DNA of 64,000 nt. It comes from Pelotomaculum sp. (GTDB lineage: Bacteria > Bacillota > Desulfotomaculia > Desulfotomaculales > Pelotomaculaceae). Location: the NCBI GenBank assembly GCA_003489345.1, contig DNIT01000188.1, positions 79 to 64,078 on the forward strand, in the 5' to 3' direction. Numbering within the stretch: position 1 is the stretch's first letter; every line of letters starts with the position of its first letter. A program made the position numbers and the translations under genes. A model generated the notes under the pieces. That model had not been told where the DNA came from and did no database searches. It saw only the letters and a program-made list of their open reading frames with translations. This document shows positions 16,990-39,094 of this stretch, in pieces.

Positions 16990-17720
16990 ACATCATTGAG
17001 GAGCAATACGCTTGGAACGGAGCGCTATCCTACCGGGACAGCACCAAGTACATTGTCCTGCACCATGAAGCAGGCTGGGGGACAGCGCAGGAAATCCACA
17101 GAGAGCACGTCAAGAATGGCTGGGTAGGCATCGGATATAACTTTTACGTCCGGAAGGATGGATCTATCTATCGTGGCCGACCAATCAATGCCGAGGGCGC
17201 ACACACGAAGGGGTACAACTCTGTATCTGTTGGCATCTGCGCGGAAGGTTATTACCATCCCGCGCCGGCCGGGGCAAAGATACAACCGGATAAGGTGATG
17301 CCGGAAGCGCAGAAGAAGAGCCTGGCCGAACTCGTGGCCTATTGCCGCAAGCTATACCCCAACGCTGAGGTTGTAGGGCACCGTGACCTGGTAGCTACGG
17401 CCTGCCCGGGAGACTATTTCCCATTTGATGAAATTCTGGTGCTGGTGGGCCAGAAAGAAAACCGAGAAGAAGGAGACGATGGAGAAGTGGTAAGGTACCA
17501 AAAGCTTAACGATATCCCTAACGAATACGGGTTTAGGGGCATCGTAGAAACCTTGATGAACGCGAAAATTGTTAACGGTGATGGGTCTGATAGTACCGGC
17601 AATGATGATGTGATTGACCTGAGCCATGATCAGGTACGTACGCTGGTGTTTTTGTATCGGGGCGGGGCATTCGACCGGCAGCTGATCGCTATGGGATTAG
17701 ACCCAGCGGTAAATGGTTAG
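16986..17720 (+). CDS. Endolysin, N-acetylmuramoyl-L-alanine amidase (Amidase_2)
   Basis: IVLHH, GW.GIGY.F, GAH..GYN..SVGIC and GHRD...TACPG motifs. Confidence 0.92.
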   Translation: MNIIEEQYAWNGALSYRDSTKYIVLHHEAGWGTAQEIHREHVKNGWVGIGYNFYVRKDGSIYRGRPINAEGAHTKGYNSVSVGICAEGYYHPAPAGAKIQPDKVMPEAQKKSLAELVAYCRKLYPNAEVVGHRDLVATACPGDYFPFDEILVLVGQKENREEGDDGEVVRYQKLNDIPNEYGFRGIVETLMNAKIVNGDGSDSTGNDDVIDLSHDQVRTLVFLYRGGAFDRQLIAMGLDPAVNG

Positions 17721-17733
17721 GAGGTGTAGATAC

Positions 17734-18744
17734 TTGTTTAGTCAAAAACCAATGGCTCTTTTCCCGTATCAAACGCAGGATGTCGCCCCGCAGGCAGAGC
17801 TGCCCTGGAATATTACCCAAGTCAATGCGCCGTCCTTCTGGCAGAAAACCAAAGGGGACGGCGTTGTTGTTGCCATCATCGATACTGGCCTGGACGTTAG
17901 TCATGCTGAGTTTGCCGGGCGCATTGTGGCCGGTAGGAACTTTACCACCGACAGCGCCGCGGACGCAGACGGCCACGGCACTAATGTAGCCGGCATTATC
18001 GGCGGGGCAAATACAGGTGTCGCTCCCGGGTGCCGGATCATGCCATTGAAAGTGTTCGGCAGTGGAAACGGCTTTGCTTTTCAGGATGCGTTTCGCTATA
18101 TCCGTGAATACAACAGCAAGGCAGCTGATGCCGACAAGGTTGTAGCCGTGAACTGCTCATGGGGTGGCTCCTACGACCCAGTCATCCATTACATTATTCG
18201 CGAGTTGGTTAACGAGGGTGTGGGCGTGATCGTTTCGGCCGGAAATGCTGGCGACGGTGACCCAGAAACATCTGAGATATGGAACTGGCCGGGATTCTTG
18301 TGGGAGCCGATCACGGTCGGAGCGCTGAACCAGGACGGGCAGCCGGCAGGCTACAGCTCCAGCTACGATGGCATTGACCTGGGCGCGCCTGGGACGCTGA
18401 TATACTCTGCCTGGCCAGGTGGGGGCTACAAGCTCCTGTCAGGTACCAGCATGGCCGCGCCGCACGTCACCGGGGCCTATGCGCTTTTGGTAGCGGCGTT
18501 TAAGCAACGTGAGGGGCGGCTGCCGAGAGGGGATGAGGTTGAGTGCATTCTCTTCAAGCACATCAAGGCTACTGGGGCTGACGAGAGACTATCCGGGACC
18601 GGCATCTTGGACTTGACCTATGAGACCAAGAGGTGGCCGCTGTATCGGGTGCAGACTGGGGCGTTCTATAACGAGGCAGGAGCTGATACTACCAAGGAAA
18701 GTCTTGTTGTTGCCGGGTTCTCTGCCTACAAAGTGAGGTATTAG
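17734..18744 (+). CDS. Subtilisin-like S8 serine protease with a short C-terminal SPOR-like segment
   Basis: Catalytic triad motifs IIDTG, HGT.VAG and GTSMAAP; C-terminal YRVQTGAF. Confidence 0.9.
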   Translation: MFSQKPMALFPYQTQDVAPQAELPWNITQVNAPSFWQKTKGDGVVVAIIDTGLDVSHAEFAGRIVAGRNFTTDSAADADGHGTNVAGIIGGANTGVAPGCRIMPLKVFGSGNGFAFQDAFRYIREYNSKAADADKVVAVNCSWGGSYDPVIHYIIRELVNEGVGVIVSAGNAGDGDPETSEIWNWPGFLWEPITVGALNQDGQPAGYSSSYDGIDLGAPGTLIYSAWPGGGYKLLSGTSMAAPHVTGAYALLVAAFKQREGRLPRGDEVECILFKHIKATGADERLSGTGILDLTYETKRWPLYRVQTGAFYNEAGADTTKESLVVAGFSAYKVRY

Positions 18745-20523: not shown

Positions 20524-20826
20524 TCACTTTGGCTTCAGCTCAAACCTTCCACAACTTTGTGTTTCCGGATCGCCCCCCTTAAGAGCGTCCTGCAACCCTT
20601 CAAGCCCAATCAGTTTAACGATCTCCATTACCGGGACAACCGGGGGAATGCGTTTTTCCATGTTTCCATATGCCTTGATACTAACTACACAGCCATATTT
20701 TACCTCTGTTTTTCCTTTAATGGGGACAAAAAATTTACAATGCTTGCAGCGGTGAACTGCCTTCTGTCGCATATCGGGGAGATACATCCGGTGCTTCTCC
20801 CACAAAACATTACTTTTATCTGCCAT
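20524..20826 (-). CDS. YolD-like partner of the Y-family polymerase, with a Cys-rich C-terminus
   Basis: N.LWE..RM.LP start resembles YolD-like proteins; overlaps the polymerase 3' end; C..C plus two more Cys. Confidence 0.55.
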   Translation of the reverse strand: MADKSNVLWEKHRMYLPDMRQKAVHRCKHCKFFVPIKGKTEVKYGCVVSIKAYGNMEKRIPPVVPVMEIVKLIGLEGLQDALKGGDPETQSCGRFELKPK

Positions 20827-22006
20827 ACTTCAAACTGTCCTCCGTGAGTGATATGCCCCTGAAAATTGCGCTTTCGCCAAATCGATCCCGTATAGCGTCA
20901 CAAGCTTTGACCATTTTCTCCTGACGCTCTTCCCAACCGAAAAGGTCAAACTGCTGGTGTTCCTTCTTGACGAGATTGCTGAACGTCACGCCAACAAGCC
21001 TTGTCGGCCATGATTCATTCCAGTGTTTCGACAGAAGTCTGCAGGCCGTTTGGTAGATATCGTCGGGAAGATCAGTATACTCCCTCATAGTCATTGCCCT
21101 AGATAAACAATTGAACTGCGTATCCCGAAGTGTCAAAAAAACCGTTCGTCCTACATAACCGCCCTGGCGGACCCGCCTTGATACCATCTCACTTAGTTCT
21201 AAGATAACCACTTTGATCTTCTCAAAGCCCCGAAGGTCACGCGGAAGAGTTCTCTGTTGTCCGATGCTTTTGGATGTGTCCAAAGATGTGGGAGTGACAG
21301 GAGAATGGTCTATCCCTTGGGCGCAATACCAGAGCATTTCACCATTTTTCCCCCAGCGTTTTTTTAATATCTCTACCGGAAAACTTGCTAGGTCCCCAAT
21401 TGTATGGATGTTAAAGCGGTGCAAGTGGCGTTCATATCTGGGACCTATTCCGAACAACTCCCTAACGGGCTTGTCATAAAAAGCTTTTCTGTAATCCTCC
21501 ACCGTTTTCAATATGGTCAAGCCGTTTGGTTTCTGTAGGCCGGCTGCCATTTTTGCGATCAATTTGTTCGGGCCGATACCTATGCTGCACATTATCCCGA
21601 CCTCATTCCGGATTCTCTCTTTTATTCTTATGGCGATTTCTAAAGGCGTGCCGAATAAGTGAATGACACCAGTCAGATCCATAAAAGCCTCATCAATGGA
21701 AAACGGCTCAACTAGGTCCGTGAAGTCCCGCATGATCTTAAGAATCCGGGTTGAGTATTCAACATAAAGCGAATAGTCAGGCTTGAAAAAGAACGCATCC
21801 GGGCATAACCGTTTCGCTTCCCAAAGCGCCATGCCGGTTTTGATCCCAACCGCCTTGGCCGGATAGGACGCAGCCAGAACAATACCGGTACGCCTCTCCG
21901 GATCGCCGGCAACTATCACCTCTTTGCCTTGCAGCTCTGGTTGCTCGGCGATATGGCAGGATGCGAAAAAGCTATTGGCATCGGCAAGCAGTATGACTCG
22001 TTTCAT
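20816..22006 (-). CDS. Y-family error-prone DNA polymerase (DinB/UmuC/UvrX-like)
   Basis: D.NSFFAS, AASY.AK..G, FSIDEAF.D, NK..AKMA...KP.G and V..LFGIG motifs. Confidence 0.95.
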   Translation of the reverse strand: MKRVILLADANSFFASCHIAEQPELQGKEVIVAGDPERRTGIVLAASYPAKAVGIKTGMALWEAKRLCPDAFFFKPDYSLYVEYSTRILKIMRDFTDLVEPFSIDEAFMDLTGVIHLFGTPLEIAIRIKERIRNEVGIMCSIGIGPNKLIAKMAAGLQKPNGLTILKTVEDYRKAFYDKPVRELFGIGPRYERHLHRFNIHTIGDLASFPVEILKKRWGKNGEMLWYCAQGIDHSPVTPTSLDTSKSIGQQRTLPRDLRGFEKIKVVILELSEMVSRRVRQGGYVGRTVFLTLRDTQFNCLSRAMTMREYTDLPDDIYQTACRLLSKHWNESWPTRLVGVTFSNLVKKEHQQFDLFGWEERQEKMVKACDAIRDRFGESAIFRGISLTEDSLKYGR

Positions 22007-22124: not shown

Positions 22125-22175
22125 TTCACGAATACGAGAAAAATATCTTGACTATTCACGTATTCGTGATACAAT
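22125..22175 (+). promoter_or_regulatory. Promoter with two TTCACG-N4-CGTGAA-type operators
   Basis: TTGACT-16-TACAAT at 22148-22175; TTCACGAATACGAGAA at 22125-22140 and TTCACGTATTCGTGAT at 22155-22170. Confidence 0.75.
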
Positions 22176-22608: not shown

Positions 22609-23088
22609 GTGATAAAAGAAAAGATTCGAGCCGGAATAAATAAAGCCACCCCTCCGATGGTGACATTCGCCGAAAACGAGGCTGGAAAGACCAGGCTGGC
22701 GCAGTATCTCATCTCCGGCATGCTTGCCAAGATAGAAGCCGGATTAGACCTGGACGCTATAGATTATGATGTTATTGTTGCGGCCCGAATAGAGAATGGC
22801 ATCATAGATGCCCTGAAGCTGCGCAGGGGTGAAAACCCTGACGCAGGCGGGCTGTTGAATTGGCTGGATGCCTGCAGCCTGCCGGTGGAGTACAATTTCC
22901 CTTGGGAGCAAACCAAAAAAGAGGTGATGACGATCCAGGAAGCCGCGCGCCTCTGGGATCAGGAAACCAGCACGATACGAAAAGCCTGCCTTGCTGGTAG
23001 GTTCACAGAAGAAGAAGCATGGAAATCTGGCGGCACCTGGTTGGTCACCGCCGTTGGTATGGAGAGGTTATATGGGAAAAAACAATGA
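22609..23088 (+). CDS. Protein with a C-terminal helix-turn-helix (Aca-like autoregulator candidate)
   Basis: VMT..EAA.LW....STIRKAC..GRF...EA.KSG.TWLVT..GMERLYG. Confidence 0.75.
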   Translation: MIKEKIRAGINKATPPMVTFAENEAGKTRLAQYLISGMLAKIEAGLDLDAIDYDVIVAARIENGIIDALKLRRGENPDAGGLLNWLDACSLPVEYNFPWEQTKKEVMTIQEAARLWDQETSTIRKACLAGRFTEEEAWKSGGTWLVTAVGMERLYGKKQ

Positions 23089-23315: not shown

Positions 23316-23393
23316 AAAAATCCCTCCTCTGCTGCAGGATTTTACAAGATATTGCAGAATAAATCAGCATAATTTTCTTTGGAGGGGTATAAA

Positions 23394-23669
23394 ATGGAGG
23401 ATAAAAAACCTATACGGATATACTGTAATCGTGTTAGTATTGGATTAAGCACATTCGATATCACCCTTGCTCTTGCCTCTTCCTTTAAGGGTGGAGAGCC
23501 AGACCCGGAAGATATTGTAGCAGAAGTCATTATGAGCCCGCAACACGCAAAAGCATTTGCGGTTGCACTGGGCAATAATATTAGAGATTATGAAAAGATT
23601 TATGGTGATATTAATTTAAATCCTAATCAATCCGCTTTAGAAGAAATTACGAAGCAACAGAATGATTAG
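23394..23669 (+). CDS. DUF3467-like protein
   Basis: Y.N.V.I..S.FDI.L and V.MSPQHAK.F...L..NI..YE..YG.I motifs. Confidence 0.75.
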   Translation: MEDKKPIRIYCNRVSIGLSTFDITLALASSFKGGEPDPEDIVAEVIMSPQHAKAFAVALGNNIRDYEKIYGDINLNPNQSALEEITKQQND

Positions 23670-23684
23670 ATCCGAGGTGGGCTT

Positions 23685-24020
23685 ATGTTTACGACAAAAG
23701 ATCCACTCGGCAGGAATGTAGTGTTGAAGGCAAGTACATGGAATGTTCATATCGTAAAAGGCCACAATGAAATGTATAAACAAGAAAATTTAGTAAGAAA
23801 AGTAATCGAAAGGCCAGCGTTCATCTTGAAAGACAGGGATTCAGATGACAGAGATAATTATTTTGATCTTTGCCATCATCCCAAAAACGGCTCTCTCTCA
23901 ATTCTGAAAGTGGTTGTAGAGTTTTCTGATAGCACTGGTGATGTGGTTACCGCATATCCTATTAAAAACACCATCACTCAAGCAACCACAGTAAGGGGTG
24001 TAGTCTATGAGCGCCCGTAG
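23685..24020 (+). CDS. BECR/RelE-like nuclease toxin candidate
   Basis: W..HI..GH.EM, I..P..I, LKVVVE and VVTAY motifs; sits upstream of DUF2283. Confidence 0.65.
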   Translation: MFTTKDPLGRNVVLKASTWNVHIVKGHNEMYKQENLVRKVIERPAFILKDRDSDDRDNYFDLCHHPKNGSLSILKVVVEFSDSTGDVVTAYPIKNTITQATTVRGVVYERP

Positions 24021-24249
24021 GAGAAAGCTTACCCTGAATTACGACAAAGAGCATGATGTTATGTATGTGTCTTTAGGGGCACCTAAGCCGTCATATTGTG
24101 ACGATGATATTGAGGGGGTGCTTATTCGGCGTTCCCTGGAAAGCAATAGACTATCCGGCGTTACGATAATGGACTTTTCCAGGAAAACCAAAGAGCAACT
24201 AAAGCGGATAATCCCGTTTAACTTGGATATAAGCGAACTGTATAGATAA
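24007..24249 (+). CDS. DUF2283 family protein (putative antitoxin)
   Basis: YD.E.DVMYV.L and GV.IR.......GVTI.DFS motifs. Confidence 0.8.
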   Translation: MSARRRKLTLNYDKEHDVMYVSLGAPKPSYCDDDIEGVLIRRSLESNRLSGVTIMDFSRKTKEQLKRIIPFNLDISELYR

Positions 24250-24281: not shown

Positions 24282-24307
24282 AGCCCGGCGGTAGCCGGGC
24301 TTTGTTT
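24282..24307 (+). terminator. Intrinsic terminator
   Basis: AGCCCGGC-GGTA-GCCGGGCT followed by TTGTTT. Confidence 0.7.
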
Positions 24308-24365: not shown

Positions 24366-24485
24366 TCATTTGTTAATATTTTGTGTGGTTGATTTTTGTT
24401 TCTCAATAATACGGTCGGCCACCCGGAGCATTATTCTTAAAGCTTTGATCATTTTCAGCTGCTTTGGTGTGAATTCTTTCTTCAT
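24366..24485 (-). CDS. 39-aa basic protein starting at the edge of attP (candidate recombination directionality factor, copy A)
   Basis: MKKEFTPKQLKMIKALRIMLRVADRIIEKQKSTTQNINK; 22 of 25 core residues identical to 28419-28562. Not in the ORF track. Confidence 0.7.
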   Translation of the reverse strand: MKKEFTPKQLKMIKALRIMLRVADRIIEKQKSTTQNINK

Positions 24486-24488
24486 AGG

Positions 24489-24534
24489 ATATCAACTGGT
24501 CAAAAGCCCTTTAGTGCTGTTTACCAGTTGATAT
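24489..24534. other. attP-like site of the serine integrase
   Basis: 46-bp dyad around a central TT (24511-24512): perfect 12-bp outer arms ATATCAACTGGT/ACCAGTTGATAT and 19 of 22 positions symmetric; 6 bp past the integrase stop. Confidence 0.8.
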
Positions 24535-24540
24535 GGATAA

Positions 24541-26013
24541 TCATAGATTATAGTCTATTTCGATTCTGTTATCGCTATAAACTTTAACAGAATTAACCAT
24601 ATTGGTTATAATCCCTCGGCGCTCTGCTTCGTCTGCCTCTTCCCAGATGGCAGGAAAGTTTTCTAGCGTTTCAATCCTGTTTTTAGCACTGGTTTGCCTG
24701 GAGCTATTTTCTTGAAGCTGAATTTCAATATTTGTTATTTGTTCTTGTAGGTATGTTTTCTTCTCTCGGAGCGACTTAACCCTTTCCATGAGTTCGTCTG
24801 GTTCCAGCGCGCCCTTTTCAAAAGCAGAATACCATCTATCCAGCTTTTTATCAATTGATTCAATGTCTTTTCGAGCCTGGTTGATCCCTCGCAGAAGAGA
24901 TTTTTCGTCAGTAGTCTTGGCGTTGGCCTCGTCAACCACATGTTGGATTAATTTTTTATCATTGCTAAAACTATATAACTCCAGGATAACTTTGTTTTCT
25001 ACCTCTTCAGCCTGTTTGTAGCCACATTTACATCCTTCTTTTTTGATCATGTATTTTGCTGAACCATCTTGGCTGTAACATACATAATACCGGATCACTT
25101 TTTTGGGATCGGTACACGGATGGTTCTGCCATGTGTTTTTAACTCTCATCCTGGCACCGCATTCGCCACACCAGATCATACCGGATAGGAGTCCGGAATA
25201 GATATTGGCAGATGCCCGGATCGCGCCCCTTCCGTTGATTAATGACTGGACCTCTTCCCACTTTTCAAAGTCTATGATAGCTGGATGTTTTCCCTTATAA
25301 AGTTCCCCTTGGTGGTAAACTAACCCGGCGTAGAGAGGATTGGTCAATATGTTACGGATCTCTTGTTTGCTCCATCCCTTTCCGGTTGGCCCGGGAACTC
25401 CGCGTTGCTCAAGCTTTTCCCCAATGGATTGATACCCATATTCTCTTTCGAGATAACAATCATAGATCCATCTTACTATCTGTGCTTGTATTTCATCAAT
25501 CTCTAGCACTTTTAATTCAAAATTATACCGGTATCCATAGGCTGCAATGCCACCCAAAAAACGACCTTGTTTAGCGCTTTCTTTTTTAGCCATCCGAACA
25601 CGCTCAACTATGGTTTCCCGTTCAAGCTGGGCAAATACGGCCATCATTCCGATGGCAGCCTTGCCAAATGGGGTAGTTGTGTCAAACGTTTCCGTGGCGG
25701 ATTTAAAGCCGATTTCATTAGGCTCAAAGACATCTTCCAAAAGATACAGGACATCTTTCTGCCGGCGTGAAAGTCGGTCTAGTTTCAATACAAGCGCAGC
25801 GTTAAACTTTTTATCCTGGGCATCCGTCATAAGTCTTTGCATAGCCGGACGTTCCAGATCCTTGCCGCTATAGCCATCATCTACATAGAAATCAAATACC
25901 TCCCACCCTTGAGACTGACAATATGCAAGAAGGCGGGATTTTTGGGCAGGGATGGATATACCCTGTTCGGCTTGTTCGTCGGTGCTGACCCTAATGTAAA
26001 TTGCTATGAGCAT
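24541..26013 (-). CDS. Large serine recombinase (integrase)
   Basis: YIRVST..Q, D.GYSG...RP, LDRLSR, AQLERE.I.ER, recombinase domain, CGECG zinc ribbon and coiled coil. Confidence 0.97.
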   Translation of the reverse strand: MLIAIYIRVSTDEQAEQGISIPAQKSRLLAYCQSQGWEVFDFYVDDGYSGKDLERPAMQRLMTDAQDKKFNAALVLKLDRLSRRQKDVLYLLEDVFEPNEIGFKSATETFDTTTPFGKAAIGMMAVFAQLERETIVERVRMAKKESAKQGRFLGGIAAYGYRYNFELKVLEIDEIQAQIVRWIYDCYLEREYGYQSIGEKLEQRGVPGPTGKGWSKQEIRNILTNPLYAGLVYHQGELYKGKHPAIIDFEKWEEVQSLINGRGAIRASANIYSGLLSGMIWCGECGARMRVKNTWQNHPCTDPKKVIRYYVCYSQDGSAKYMIKKEGCKCGYKQAEEVENKVILELYSFSNDKKLIQHVVDEANAKTTDEKSLLRGINQARKDIESIDKKLDRWYSAFEKGALEPDELMERVKSLREKKTYLQEQITNIEIQLQENSSRQTSAKNRIETLENFPAIWEEADEAERRGIITNMVNSVKVYSDNRIEIDYNL

Positions 26014-26057: not shown

Positions 26058-26900
26058 TTATTCCTTAAGTTCTCTCTTGGTTTCTCCCTTGACTCTCTTA
26101 ATCCTTCTTTCTATTTTTTTGATATCTTCTTCAACTGGTAAACGTTCTGGCATTGTCCCGCCAATATCCTTAATGGCTTTTCGCACTTTTGCTCCGACTT
26201 CATAATGCGTATCATTGGCTTTTTGTTTTCCTCTAATATTTTCACGTCTTAGCTTTTCTTCGGTTTGGGTGGCTCTAAAGAGGTTTGCAGCAAGTTCAGT
26301 GCTCCCCATATGGTCGGAAATATTTTGAGTAGGTCTTAGGCCCCTTCTAAATTGTAAATCTTTTTGGGTTAAGCCGCCATAAAGACCCATATAACCATGG
26401 TTTTGAAAAATTGCAAAATCTCTTCCTGTCTCAACCCCTGCCCTCTTGGCCGTACTAAAAAGAACGCTATGGTGTTTTCTTAATTCTTCCCGAAGAATCA
26501 CCCTTTTTTCCTCATCGGAGCTCTGTTCAAATAATTCTTGCTTATGGGTTTGTATAGCAAAGTAGGTTTGCCCAAGTGCCACCATTGGCTTGGTCGGGTC
26601 AGCGTTTTGAATAAGCAGGTAACAAGCGTAACGAGATAACAAATAATCTTTTATTAGCCGTTTTGCGCCGGAACCGATATCAACCATTTCGTTGATGTCA
26701 ACGAAATGGTCTGCGACGTTCTGACCGCTATTTACACATGCTTTTTTCGCTCTTGCTATTGCAAGTTCTAGGTTTCTAAAATCAGTATATTCTAATATTT
26801 TCTGCATATCTCTTGCAGTCCAAAACTCCATTCCATTTTTATTGACACGTTTTGCTTGTTCAAAAAGTGAAACATGACTAGGTGCTACAGGCTTATCCAT
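26058..26900 (-). CDS. dinD: DNA damage-inducible protein D (DinD/BRO-like)
   Basis: EFW.AR, LSRYACYL..QNADP.K, FQNHGY.GLYGG, DHMGSTELAANLFRATQTEEKL and GGTMPE.LP motifs. Confidence 0.85.
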   Translation of the reverse strand: MDKPVAPSHVSLFEQAKRVNKNGMEFWTARDMQKILEYTDFRNLELAIARAKKACVNSGQNVADHFVDINEMVDIGSGAKRLIKDYLLSRYACYLLIQNADPTKPMVALGQTYFAIQTHKQELFEQSSDEEKRVILREELRKHHSVLFSTAKRAGVETGRDFAIFQNHGYMGLYGGLTQKDLQFRRGLRPTQNISDHMGSTELAANLFRATQTEEKLRRENIRGKQKANDTHYEVGAKVRKAIKDIGGTMPERLPVEEDIKKIERRIKRVKGETKRELKE

Positions 26901-27326: not shown

Positions 27327-27355
27327 ATTTTACCATAGAACATATGTTCTAACAA
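27327..27355 (-). promoter_or_regulatory. Sigma-A promoter with a perfect LexA box in the spacer
   Basis: TTGTTA-17-TAAAAT with TG extension; GAACATATGTTC at 27338-27349. Confidence 0.85.
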
Positions 27356-27418: not shown

Positions 27419-27778
27419 TCATTTTCTCGGTTTATTATACCTTTTTCGAGCTTCTTCGACGGCGCGGATACCTGCTTCCAATAATTCCCGTTGAGCCTCG
27501 GGCGACAATCCTCTTCGAGCGTATTCTTCTGTGAGCGTGGCTGAAATATCTTTGTATTTTAGATCATCGGGAATAGGGAGTTTATTGCCGTGAATAATCC
27601 AATCAGTGGATACTTTGAAATAAGCAGCTATCTTTGTGGTTATTCCATAATCAGGCTCACGGCGACTTTTTTCATAATGAGATAAAGCCGCCCTCGTTAT
27701 ACCTATAGCATCGGCTAATTGTTCCTGCGTTAAACCAGCCTCTCCTCGAAGGAGGGCAATTCTTTCACCATACTCCAT
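27419..27778 (-). CDS. CI-like XRE repressor without a peptidase domain
   Basis: LTQEQLA..IGITR.ALS.YE...REP HTH_3 motif; 119 aa; divergent from the cro-like gene. Confidence 0.9.
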   Translation of the reverse strand: MEYGERIALLRGEAGLTQEQLADAIGITRAALSHYEKSRREPDYGITTKIAAYFKVSTDWIIHGNKLPIPDDLKYKDISATLTEEYARRGLSPEAQRELLEAGIRAVEEARKRYNKPRK

Positions 27779-27819: not shown

Positions 27820-27930
27820 TCTACAAATTGTATCGCCGATAAAATACATGATACAAAAAGTTTCAAAAAGGTCTTGACACGATACGAAACGTAGCTTATT
27901 ATAATAGTAGCAACGATACAATATGTCGCA
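27820..27930. promoter_or_regulatory. Lysis-lysogeny switch: rightward promoter and repeated operators
   Basis: TTGACA-17-TATTAT at 27874-27902; four GATAC-N5-GT elements (CGATACgaaacGTAGC, CGATACaatatGTCGC, TGATACaaaaaGTTTC and an inverted CGATACaatttGTAGA). Confidence 0.75.
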
Positions 27931-27949: not shown

Positions 27950-28171
27950 TTGAGATGGCATATGCGCAAGCGCAGGGTAGAGTTGGGTTTATCCCAGGAG
28001 GAAGTGGCTAATATGGCTGATATGGCTAGGGCTGTTTACTCCCATATTGAGGTTGGAAGAAATAAAAATCCAAGCATTGCACAGATGGAATCAATTGCTA
28101 AAGCACTAAAAGTCAAACCGGATATAAATTTTTTTCGAGATTTTTGCGACGAAATGGAGCAAACATCATGA
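27950..28171 (+). CDS. Cro-like HTH regulator
   Basis: GLSQEEVA...YS.IE.G..NPS...IAKAL motif. Confidence 0.88.
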   Translation: MRWHMRKRRVELGLSQEEVANMADMARAVYSHIEVGRNKNPSIAQMESIAKALKVKPDINFFRDFCDEMEQTS

Positions 28172-28413
28172 AGCAAAACGGAAAACAAAGCAACAAGAAA
28201 ACCGGCAAGCGTGTTAAGCAAGCAGTTAAGGAATCCGGCATGAGCCAGCCGGAGGTAGCAGGCAAAGCCGGGATGTCGGCAAGGCACCTTCACAAGATCA
28301 AAACCGGCCTCGTTGACCCAAGCATTAAAGCACTAGCCAGAATTGGTCACGTCGTTGGTAAGAGGCTGACCGACCTCAAGAAGCGCAATGGAGACAACAA
28401 GAAAGGCAGGTGA
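28168..28413 (+). CDS. XRE HTH regulator
   Basis: GMSQ.EVA.KAGMS..HL.KI..G..DPSI motif. Confidence 0.8.
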   Translation: MKQNGKQSNKKTGKRVKQAVKESGMSQPEVAGKAGMSARHLHKIKTGLVDPSIKALARIGHVVGKRLTDLKKRNGDNKKGR

Positions 28414-28418
28414 GAACC

Positions 28419-28562
28419 TTGCGTGACGATAAAGCTGTTTCGCTCGGTACAAAGTTCACGCCGAAACAAACCAAGATGCTCAAAGCTCTTCGGATAATGC
28501 TCCGGGTGGCTGATAGGCTCATTGAGAAGGACAGGAAGAAAGAGCAAAAGCAGGCCGTCTAG
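28419..28562 (+). CDS. 47-aa basic protein (candidate recombination directionality factor, copy B)
   Basis: MRDDKAVSLGTKFTPKQTKMLKALRIMLRVADRLIEKDRKKEQKQAV; SD AGGCAGGTGA; paralogue of 24366-24485. Not in the ORF track. Confidence 0.75.
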   Translation: MRDDKAVSLGTKFTPKQTKMLKALRIMLRVADRLIEKDRKKEQKQAV

Positions 28563-35314: not shown

Positions 35315-38300
35315 ATGCGCATCCTTCACACCGCCGACTGGCATCTTGGGGAGTTTCCCGGACCTGTCGTAGACGGCAAGAACGCCCGTCTCATGGACAC
35401 TGTACGCTGCATTGACTTCCTGGTTGAGAAGGCAATGTATGTGCAGCCGGACGCGATCCTGATCGCCGGTGATCTATTTCACAAGTCCCAGCAGTGGGCA
35501 AACCCCATGCTGAACCTGATCGACATTGCCGCTTCGAGGCTGCGGCAACTTGCGGCCATAGCGCCTACCGTATTAATGTTTGGCACCGCGAACCACGACA
35601 ATCTGCAGGCTTTTGAGAATATCAGAGCCATGCGTATAGATAACCTCTATATTATAACAACTCCTTATCTATTTACCTTTGATACCAAGTCCGGGCCGCT
35701 GCAGATCGCGGCGGTTCCGGGCCTGGACAAAGGTTACTTCCGCACGAAATTTCCCGGCATGGACCCAGCAGAGGAAAATCAAAAATGCAGTGAACTTCTG
35801 GGTGACATTGTTTTGGGACTCGGCGCTCAGGTTGATACCTTATTGCCTTCGGTGCTGATGACACACTACAGCGTGGCTGGCTGCGAGTATGACAATGGGC
35901 AGCAACATATCTTTACCCAGTCAGAGGTTATCCTCCAGCGCGAGGCCATTGCCGCGAGTCCGTTTGATTTGGTGTGCCTGGGGCACATCCATAAGGCGCA
36001 GGAGGTCGAGCATTGCGGCAGGCCGGTGTTTTATTCCGGGGCGATCAACGGGCTGACCTTCAATGAAGAGGGGCAGGATAAAGGGTTCTGGATACATGAT
36101 GTCGAGATGGATTCGCATGACCATGTATTTTCCCGCTTTATCAATACCCCATATCGTGAGTTTCTGACTGAGAAATGGGACGACCAGAACATTGAAACTT
36201 TCCTTTCTTATGAAGGAGAGGCCCCAACATGGTTGCACGGAACGCGGGTAAAAGACAAAATTATCCGCATCCACTACGAATGTTCCGACGAACTAAACAA
36301 ACAACTCAACCGCAAGGTACTGGAGAAGTCCCTCTACGAAGCCGGTGCCTTCTACGTGGCCGAAGTCAAGCCCGTGCAGATAATAACTGCCCTGACCAAA
36401 CAGGAACTTTCCGAGAATGCCGGACCGATGGAGAACTTGCGCAACTGGTGCAGGGCGGAAGGATTTACCCCGGAGGAAACACTTGAACTGGAAATACTAG
36501 CCAGACCGCTAATTGATACGGTGAGTTCCAGGATGCCGACCGGGAAGCTGTCAGGAGTATTTGAACCACGGCGGCTTGAAGTAAAGAACTACCGGTCATA
36601 CAGAGAAGCATCCTTTGATTTTAGCCAAGTCAATTTCGCGGTAGTTGGCGGCCCGAACGGAATCGGCAAATCAGCCTTCTTCATGGACGCGATCAGCGAC
36701 TGCCTTTATGAGGAAACCCGCGAGGGAGAACTCACAGGATGGATTACCAACGGCGAGAAATCAGGCGCCATTACGTTTGAGTTTTCCATGGGCGAATCAA
36801 TCTGGCGGGTGATCCGTACCCGTGCCAGGTCTGGCAAAACCACAGTGGCGCTCCAGGAGCAGATTGACGGCCAGTGGGTTGACAGGAGCGCCGAAAAGGT
36901 TCGCGACACACAGGAGAAGATTGTGGCCCTCTTGGGCATGGACGCTCTGACATTTCGGTGTTGCGGGATCATTATGCAGGACGCTTATGGCCTCTTCCTT
37001 GAGGCCGACAGGGAAGACAGGATGCAGGTTCTGGGCAACATCCTGGGGCTGGGAATATATGAGCAGCTTGAAACATTGGCAAAAGCCAAAGTAACTGATG
37101 CCAACCGGGAGTTACAGAAGGCGAAAGATAAATTGGCTGATCTGGATGAAAAATTAAAAGCGCTGCCTGGGTTGAAAACCGAGCAGGAAGTGGTGGAGGC
37201 CGAGATCAAGCAGGTGGCCGCCAATATCGAATCAAAAACTGCCGAATTAAAAGGGCTTGAGGAAACGGTCAGGACTCTGGAAGAGAAGCAGCGTAAGGCT
37301 GAGGAGTTTCTAAAACAAATGGAAACGCTCAATACCGAAAGTGATTCTAAGGTCATGGATCGGGCGGAGCAGATCAAGAGGAAAGAGAAGGCTCAATTGA
37401 TGCTTGACCGGGAACCGGATATTTTGACCAAGGCTGCGGAATATGACCGCGTTAAGCAGCAGATCGCGGTACTGGAAACAAAAGAGCCGCGGCTAAAAGA
37501 ACTGAGCGGCGAAGAAAATCAAGTTCTCCAGAATATTACCCGGGCGGAGGCCACTTTAAGCAGGTTAGGCGTGCAAATCCGGGATGCTGAGTACTTCATA
37601 AATGACAAAGATTTGATTGAACAGAAGGCAGCTGAATACACAAGCACCCTAGAAGCACTCAATATAATGGATGGACTTGGGGAAAAACATAAAGCTTATC
37701 ATGACCAAGTGGTTACTGTCGAGAGGACAATAGATGCATCAGGCGACACTATACGTAGGAAGCGGGATATCCTGAAAATCTATAAAGATAAACTCAGAAT
37801 GCTGGATGACGCCAACTGTATAGATTCGGAAAAAGCCTCTTGCCGATTCTTGACGGACGCTATTGAAAGCAAGGCAAAAATACCTCAAATAGAGGCCGAA
37901 ATTGTAGAGATCGAGAAAACCAGGACCCCTCTAATAGAACAGGTGAAAGATCTCGAGGCCTTAAAGGACGGCCTGGGATACAGCAACGAGGAACATTACC
38001 GTCTTAAAAAACTGATTGAGGAATTACGGCCGTATTCCGAGAAGGCCCTGCAACTGAGCGCTAAGGCTGAACTGCTGGATAATCTAAACCAGCAGCAAAC
38101 CCAACGGCAAGAGGAGTTAAAAAGCCACAAAGAGCGCCTGGCATCTGTGAAAGAGTGGGCGCGGGCGTTAGCTGAGGAACTGAAACCACTCGCTGAAATG
38201 AGATCCAGGCTGCCTAAATTGGAATCCTGGGCCAAAGCGAAAGACCAGCTGCCGGCCGCGAGGGAGATATTGAAAACCGCAGGCGAGCGGATTAAGACAC

Positions 38301-39094
38301 TGGATACTGAGATAGCGGCCAAGACGGAGCAGGCGGAGGCACTTGAGCTCAGACGCGCCGATATGGCAGAAGAGGCCAAAAGGCTCCCGGATGAAAAATA
38401 TGAACTGGATGCCACCAAGGTTGCGCTGGAAGAGTTGCGGGAAAAACAAAGCACCCTCCAATTGAAAGCCGGCGGCCTCAAGGCGAAGCTGGAGGCGCTT
38501 GCCGAGGCCGTAGCCGAACGGGCGCTAATCAATGAAAATATGGGGCCGCAGGCGGTAATGCTGACGCGGTACCAGACCCTGGCGAAATCCTTCGGACAGG
38601 ACGGTATTCCCTTCTCAATCATTAGGACTGCGGTACCTGAACTATCAACGCAGGCAAATGAAATCCTGGGGCAAATGACCGGGGGTAAGATGAGCCTGGA
38701 GATGCGGACGGAGCGGATTCAGAAAAGCAACAAGAAGGAAGTCAACGCCCTGGAGATATTTATTACCGACTACCAATGGGGGACGATGCCTTACAAGAGC
38801 AGGTCAGGCGGGCAGAAGGTACGGGCTGCGCTCAGTGTGGCGTTCGCGCTGGCGGAGTTGAAAGCGAGACGGGCAGGGATTCAACTAGGGATGCTGTTCG
38901 TTGATGAGCCAAGTTTCCTCGATGCGCAAGGCTCTGAGGCTTATTGTGATGCTCTTGAGGCGATAGCTGAAAGGTACGCAGGCATGAAGGTGGTAGCGAT
39001 AAGCCATGACCCGGCCATGAAAGCCAGGTTCCCGCAGATGATCGAGGTGGAGGACGGCGGAGAAGCCGGGAGCAGAGTCAGGCTGGTTGCATAA
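35315..39094 (+). CDS. Fused SbcD-SbcC (Mre11-Rad50-like) nuclease/ATPase
   Basis: HTADWH, AGD.F, NHD and GHIH phosphoesterase motifs; Walker A GPNGIGKS; coiled coils; SGGQ signature; LFVDE Walker B; ISH. Confidence 0.92.
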   Translation: MRILHTADWHLGEFPGPVVDGKNARLMDTVRCIDFLVEKAMYVQPDAILIAGDLFHKSQQWANPMLNLIDIAASRLRQLAAIAPTVLMFGTANHDNLQAFENIRAMRIDNLYIITTPYLFTFDTKSGPLQIAAVPGLDKGYFRTKFPGMDPAEENQKCSELLGDIVLGLGAQVDTLLPSVLMTHYSVAGCEYDNGQQHIFTQSEVILQREAIAASPFDLVCLGHIHKAQEVEHCGRPVFYSGAINGLTFNEEGQDKGFWIHDVEMDSHDHVFSRFINTPYREFLTEKWDDQNIETFLSYEGEAPTWLHGTRVKDKIIRIHYECSDELNKQLNRKVLEKSLYEAGAFYVAEVKPVQIITALTKQELSENAGPMENLRNWCRAEGFTPEETLELEILARPLIDTVSSRMPTGKLSGVFEPRRLEVKNYRSYREASFDFSQVNFAVVGGPNGIGKSAFFMDAISDCLYEETREGELTGWITNGEKSGAITFEFSMGESIWRVIRTRARSGKTTVALQEQIDGQWVDRSAEKVRDTQEKIVALLGMDALTFRCCGIIMQDAYGLFLEADREDRMQVLGNILGLGIYEQLETLAKAKVTDANRELQKAKDKLADLDEKLKALPGLKTEQEVVEAEIKQVAANIESKTAELKGLEETVRTLEEKQRKAEEFLKQMETLNTESDSKVMDRAEQIKRKEKAQLMLDREPDILTKAAEYDRVKQQIAVLETKEPRLKELSGEENQVLQNITRAEATLSRLGVQIRDAEYFINDKDLIEQKAAEYTSTLEALNIMDGLGEKHKAYHDQVVTVERTIDASGDTIRRKRDILKIYKDKLRMLDDANCIDSEKASCRFLTDAIESKAKIPQIEAEIVEIEKTRTPLIEQVKDLEALKDGLGYSNEEHYRLKKLIEELRPYSEKALQLSAKAELLDNLNQQQTQRQEELKSHKERLASVKEWARALAEELKPLAEMRSRLPKLESWAKAKDQLPAAREILKTAGERIKTLDTEIAAKTEQAEALELRRADMAEEAKRLPDEKYELDATKVALEELREKQSTLQLKAGGLKAKLEALAEAVAERALINENMGPQAVMLTRYQTLAKSFGQDGIPFSIIRTAVPELSTQANEILGQMTGGKMSLEMRTERIQKSNKKEVNALEIFITDYQWGTMPYKSRSGGQKVRAALSVAFALAELKARRAGIQLGMLFVDEPSFLDAQGSEAYCDALEAIAERYAGMKVVAISHDPAMKARFPQMIEVEDGGEAGSRVRLVA

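Follow-up and report, generated by a model that had tools for sequence, protein, structure and literature searches.

A predicted excision factor beside the attachment site of a cotJC phage may be switched on by the gene that the phage interrupts

The window analysed here, a stretch of 64,000 nucleotides that makes up nearly all of a 64,515-bp Pelotomaculum contig (G000:C201), holds a phage with tail, lysis, integrase, repressor, replication and head genes. We propose that this phage carries two gene copies for recombination directionality factors (RDFs): copy A, at the attachment site, would be driven by host read-through and translational reinitiation, and copy B, in the early operon, would serve lytic induction (probability about 0.6). 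Within this reading, it is very likely that the peptides are RDFs and probable that labour is split, with copy B on the lytic side; that the host drives copy A is favoured less firmly. In its fullest form the proposal is that integration builds the excision switch: attL would put a promoterless RDF gene under the host operon within reinitiation range, the attP hairpin would hide its start, the broken gene would trigger its own repair while the second RDF copy keeps lytic excision separate, and the design would have arisen or persisted in at least two phages. To that whole we give even odds. If true, a phage can occupy a host gene without a host-matched promoter by coupling its excision factor to the broken gene, and one copy per trigger is a possible reason for the two RDFs of the phage described in the available part of PMC12286644. 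The work also supplies a new putative RDF family, with 28 distinct members of 35–50 aa over all loci collected and with their matched integrases and att sites, and makes available a natural series of own-promoter, antisense and promoterless copies for comparison.

Twin genes at attP and in the early operon

The attP site is a 46-bp palindrome of two imperfect inverted arms of 22 bp each (24489..24510 and 24513..24534) around a 2-bp centre (24511–24512), with the arms 86% complementary. On one side it adjoins the stop, at 24541, of a large serine integrase of 490 aa (24541..26013, minus strand), which matches PF00239, PF07508 and PF13408 (the catalytic or resolvase, recombinase and zinc-ribbon domains) above cut-off. 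On the other side, 3 bp beyond the inverted repeat, lies the ATG of copy A, a 39-aa predicted RDF gene (24366..24485, minus strand) that has neither a promoter block nor a Shine–Dalgarno match. The original prediction, which had placed a 39-aa open reading frame here and an in-frame TGA two codons before its ATG, is borne out on both points: the TGA occupies 24492..24494 (minus strand), leaving a gap of 6 nt. Past copy A, a GC-rich hairpin (24282..24301), terminator-like on the plus strand and with a weaker T tail on the minus strand, would terminate transcripts.

Copy B is a 47-aa twin that starts at TTG (28419..28562, plus strand), with a Shine–Dalgarno-like AGGTGA 5 nt ahead, or a 50-aa peptide if read from a GTG at 28410. 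It had been described as lying downstream of cro; it does lie downstream, but two genes after the cro-like gene and behind a second helix-turn-helix (HTH) gene (both within 27950..28413, plus strand). A sigma-A-like promoter (11/12) at 27874–27902 precedes the cro-like gene, and a cI-like repressor is encoded at 27419..27778 (minus strand).

The twins share 22 of 25 core residues, and the 25 core codons divide into 11 identical, 11 synonymous and 3 non-synonymous pairs, exactly as claimed. This likeness is not due to chance, because 200 shuffled versions of the 25-residue core reached at best 11/25 anywhere in the window. In the core, which was picked post hoc, pS is 0.82 and pN is 0.11 (Fisher p = 3.5e-8); over all 35 aligned codons the values are 0.86 and 0.25 (p = 2.5e-7). 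Synonymous sites have reached saturation, yet pN in the core is 0.11, so selection acted on both copies at the protein level for most of the time since they parted, as had been suggested. The nearest relative of copy A is a copy in G020 (92%), followed by copy B (88%). Compared with these two, the core of copy A has no amino-acid change of its own.

A Logan contig, X1, contains the stretch in one piece with zero differences; X1 may be the source sample and so is not independent. An assembly error was rejected because X1 is identical throughout, with the same proviso on its independence.

The peptide family and its predicted integrase contact

Copy A is predicted to fold as a single helix (residues 7–38). 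When co-folded with residues 262–490 of the integrase it scored 0.74, against 0.00 for the best of three controls, in line with the binding proposed earlier; runs agreed in at least 94% of contacts, with partner pLDDT of at least 77. The mark used was reached by 116/157 solved complexes and 2/215 mismatched pairs, counts that apply only roughly here, and the score may be aided by likeness to solved integrase–RDF complexes. In the model, integrase residues 351–363, 442–474 and 488–490 meet peptide residues 5–27, a part common to both copies. Within this contact stretch copy B differs by I13L and I26L only; the third change falls at residue 10, which is absent from the contact list. We read the modelled contacts as falling on the coiled-coil base and the zinc domain, and the model supports binding of copy A at the junction of the two. 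The available parts of PMC11722253 and PMC11795197 place the RDF site of serine integrases at the same zinc-domain/coiled-coil junction. Because copy A co-folds at this junction, the peptides are very likely RDFs.

We give very little credence to the alternative that they are small, basic, helical proteins that accompany the att site and regulate, say, the integrase or early transcription. Models can place a lone amphipathic helix on a coiled coil, and Pfam, PHROGs and NCBIfam returned no match for the peptides. However, the controls scored 0.00 and the contact site is the one reported for RDFs in the available parts of the papers cited above, short non-phage elements retain the integrase gene at one end and the peptide gene at the other, and the twin copies of two other phages are mutual best or tied-best matches (L063, 76%; G053, 72%), which is expected if both copies track one integrase. 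Over 15 pairs, in which kin are not independent, peptide identity followed the interface-only identity of the integrases less closely (rho 0.51) than their whole-length identity (rho 0.66), and we do not count this comparison as support.

A profile search found the peptide in 18/162 genomes of the order, and in a sample of the phylum it was present in 1/401, the window's own. Searches with a single peptide sequence gave no confirmed match in viral scans, no match in a word index and one match only, the G020 copy, in a representative library. A match in G034 was rejected: it falls within a frame of 313 aa, and the larger profile no longer recovered it. The gene is mostly found directly behind the phage arm at attL. 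A copy counted as att-type if it adjoined or lay close to an att arm, or if it neighboured the integrase and had the same upstream block; 27 of the 28 members could be scored (the G084 copy is cut by a contig end and was left out), giving 21 att-type and 6 internal copies, most of the latter with a ribosome-binding site.

The two-copy layout recurs in other phages. The 49-kb prophage in cotJC of G053 has one copy at att and another in the early operon, and L063, a 5-kb viral contig whose integrase is 73% identical, also has both. In L064 and L066 only the early copy was found, with no att copy detected in the stretches examined, and G094 has a second peptide copy just ahead of its integrase.

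Insertion in cotJC and the control of copy A

The longest match of attP elsewhere in the genome, and the sole shared 15-mer, is a 15-bp core (24498..24512, minus strand) identical to host cotJC from codon 55 (G000:C151:3015). A core of 15 bp alone could be chance; relatives split at the same cotJC codons settle the target site. In G014, G020, G027, G075, G087, G094 and others the gene is broken at these codons and runs into the same arm, G053 is also split there, and the attP arms recur at the att junctions of relatives. The gene was identified by a manganese-catalase match and by its position after cotJA-like and cotJB-like genes, together with sequence features that we presume to mark cotJC. 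The phage likely integrates at codon 55 of this spore-coat gene, inside a host gene as had been predicted. In G014 the two halves rejoin in frame over the repeated core, so that exact excision would restore the frame. Modelled from the two sequences, integration would leave a host frame encoding a 60-residue truncated CotJC that stops at the TGA in the arm, with the ATG of copy A 6 nt on and copy A co-oriented with cotJC.

Several other accounts of this junction were rejected. Copy A is no substitute 3′ end of cotJC, given the in-frame stop and the absence of similarity; no CATAnnnT that could act as an alternative promoter occurs within the att arm; and stop read-through to a CotJC–RDF fusion fails for L063, whose copy is out of frame.

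The host bin has an intact cotJABC operon on C151 and sigK above cut-off. A reading frame spans the joined contig ends, so the contig is likely a circle, and in X1 neither attP nor attB is interrupted: what was seen is the free phage and not an integrated form. No att joints were present in the contigs of four runs, contigs being a form of data that drops rare forms. The same bin contains a perfect 36-nt CRISPR spacer (G000:C55:153-188), the second in an array with at least 11 repeats, against the tail region of the phage (window 3398–3433); together with sigK and the intact operon, this spacer ties the phage to a spore-forming host.

Insertions in cotJC take further forms. Elements in L231 (5740–6100), L232 (11400–11800), L145 and L068 have related integrases and no family peptide detected at attL, and some of them are inserted in the opposite orientation. 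Tandem cotJC elements, separated by an attP-like junction and an RDF copy, occur in G020 (C7:326000-367200) and G160 (C28); a degenerate RDF-like remnant (L020:15804) is a further feature of G020. A second split site lies at Gly-Gly-Pro codons near residue 31 (G013/L023 and L022, G062/L043, G063/L044, L063:5055); in G013 this split was made by a different recombinase, and several genomes have both insertions in one gene.

Most att-type copies have what copy A lacks. CATAnnnT stands 5–6 nt ahead of the ATG in 17 of the 21, a one-letter variant in 2 and nothing of the kind in 2, against a background of 449/113216 ATG triplets; most promoter-bearing copies also have AC 16–18 nt further up. The block matches the sigma-K consensus in the available parts of PMC3416734 and PMC3789822, and would imply a leaderless message. 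It travels with the gene away from att in G013 and G111. The two promoterless att copies are copy A and that of L063, both from phages with an early-operon twin and both co-oriented with the 5′ part of cotJC. The layouts and junctions of these phages differ; their stop-to-start gaps are 6 nt (copy A) and 1 nt (L063), against 37–50 nt from the arm motif in relatives. In G053, inserted the other way round, the att copy is antisense to cotJC and the promoter is kept. The proposal that a host promoter triggers excision thus stands in part: copy A and the L063 copy are promoterless and co-oriented, but 19/21 att-type copies have their own sigma-K-like promoter, a usual feature that the original prediction overlooked along with the antisense copy of G053.

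Upstream of host cotJA we found TCACA-16-CATAAACT, which matches the sigma-K consensus given in the available part of PMC3416734; it belongs to the promoter class now missing before copy A, whose timing could therefore be unchanged by the loss. Across the cotJC matches, the strict consensus was found upstream in 4/16 scanned and a −10 box in 11/15 rescanned. In Clostridioides difficile, cotJ-type operons depend on sigK, according to the available part of PMC3789822.

Taken as a mechanism, copy B would be produced from the early lytic operon upon induction, and copy A only once integrated, from the host cotJ operon. In a lysogen, a mother-cell sigma factor (sigma-K, by the consensus) would transcribe cotJA, cotJB and truncated cotJC; ribosomes would terminate at the arm's TGA and, 6 nt on, reinitiate at copy A; and the RDF together with the integrase would excise the phage in the mother cell, rebuilding cotJC, with the spore keeping the prophage. 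In the free circle, the attP palindrome would fold over the start of copy A, leaving integrase without RDF and letting integration proceed. Recombination itself would toggle copy A on and off. Opening the start region of copy A is calculated to cost 17.2 kcal/mol in attP versus 6.6–9.5 kcal/mol in modelled attL, and the available part of PMC12286644 reports that att sites can form hairpins and block expression. Short gaps permit reinitiation, which has almost disappeared at 20 nt; a 6-nt gap lowers it in a gene-dependent manner (PMC10666635, in the part available). By the available part of PMC5499854, SPbeta needs lasting sprB expression to prevent reintegration, an effect that a copy silenced on excision would lose.

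In a second alternative, the excised circle is where copy A is expressed, through read-through of the integrase transcript, and its product blocks reintegration during lytic growth, host transcription playing no part. In the attP arrangement the integrase and copy A share a strand, copy A being 55 nt downstream, and RDFs block attP × attB recombination (PMC5499854 and PMC5595907, in the parts available). We nevertheless consider this account highly unlikely, because the attP hairpin covers the copy A start at the cost given above, the L063 att copy is convergent with its integrase, and co-expression would hinder integration at infection.

A third alternative, the main rival although we consider it unlikely, treats copy A as a relic that fell silent recently: its promoter would have been deleted, it would be untranslated, and copy B would do all excision, both being RDFs. 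The consequence would be that cotJC is left broken in sporulation or that the phage is mostly lytic. In G020, the closest relative (core 92% identical), about 39 nt holding the promoter are present that are missing before copy A. Copy A has no Shine–Dalgarno match, the phage turned up solely as a free circle, in a host that holds a spacer against it, and the low dN between the copies may predate the promoter loss, which cannot be dated because only 2 synonymous changes are unique to copy A. On the other side, L063, with its different layout and junction, also has an intact ATG within reinitiation range of the cotJC stop; in G053, the sole prophage where host transcription cannot serve the att copy, the promoter is retained; and both promoterless open reading frames are intact.

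Host driving of copy A, the reading that we prefer, has to be set against its rarity. The integrase tree (23 rows; 3 loci without an extracted integrase were dropped) groups (L063,(window, first G020 integrase)) with support of 96/96, and the G020 copy has a promoter. The L063 and window integrases are near kin, so the two promoterless cases may not be independent. Of 13 relatives whose attL copy is co-oriented with cotJC, 12 keep their own promoter, which makes read-through the exception. A second element lies further upstream in the cotJC of L063, and read-through there would require its prior departure. A pattern scan of viral sequences for promoterless junctions gave 22 stretches, with L063 the sole family member and the other 21 without a profile match; the scan for a promoter-bearing junction gave 0 stretches. 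Host-promoter triggering, as proposed here, would be a derived variant in two phages and not the rule of the family.

Known systems and other features of the window

Among described phages, the closest likeness is to SPbeta of Bacillus subtilis (spsM; SprA integrase, SprB RDF) and phi3T (kamA), which are likewise active temperate phages with a large serine integrase and a site in a mother-cell gene; in the circle their int and rdf lie on either side of attP, and they have two excision triggers, as we propose for the window phage (PMC4191935 and PMC6957869, as far as their available text goes). SPbeta, by the same partial text, has a single rdf gene served by two promoters of the phage, one for stress and one for sigma-E/K, whereas the window phage has two gene copies; its att copy, which lacks a promoter, would be transcribed from the interrupted host operon, and its target is cotJC. 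The skin (SpoIVCA/Skr) and gin (GirC/GirX) elements have small RDFs of 64 and 42 aa that time excision from a sporulation gene (available parts of PMC6957869 and PMC5595907). The short cotJC elements of G014, G075, G087 and G094 resemble them; however, skin and gin are defective or non-phage elements with their own promoters, and the window holds a whole tailed phage. Judged by its sequence, the window phage is not a full member of the SPbeta/phi3T/skin/gin type, since a mother-cell RDF promoter of its own is absent. The available parts of PMC5595907 and PMC3442830 served as further comparison sources.

Two similar small RDFs, both active with one serine integrase, are described for the Int30 phage (Shin et al. 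2025) in the available part of PMC12286644, which calls the two-RDF state surprising and gives no reason for it in that part. The Int30 copies have nearby locus tags (RS27775 and RS27795), whereas the window copies are split between attP and the early operon; the comparison is one of position. A search of the literature outside subscription papers yielded none that describes phages splitting cotJC or RDFs under host control, and none joining cotJC, prophage and RDF, and no mention of cotJC, sporulation or directionality was found in PMC13626063.

Other features lie near the twin genes. A perfect GAAC-N4-GTTC box (27338..27349), which we take to be the LexA/DinR-type consensus, stands ahead of leftward genes that end with the integrase, and SOS control of these genes is possible. 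Behind the box, the leftward genes, which take in window 26058–26900, comprise a small open reading frame, a Bro-N protein and the integrase. Within the 3′ end of the integrase gene, a sigma-A-like promoter (11/12; 24584–24612, plus strand) points antisense into the integrase; it may be due to chance, as 14 such sites were found against 10.2 expected. A trio of DUF3467, an unknown gene and DUF2283 (23379–24249) ends at the terminator beside copy A. An HTH_59 protein (22609–23088) is labelled excisionase by PHROGs, and a 15-bp inverted repeat (22126–22169) stands ahead of an open reading frame without known function. Between the lysis genes and attP there is a Y-family DNA polymerase-like gene (phrog_1268; 20524–22006, minus strand) with a small downstream open reading frame. 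A subtilase-family protease (17713–18744, plus strand) follows directly after the holin and amidase genes, and a 1259-aa protein (35315–39094, plus strand) joins a metallophosphoesterase and an SMC-type ATPase domain, SbcD–SbcC-like in one chain.
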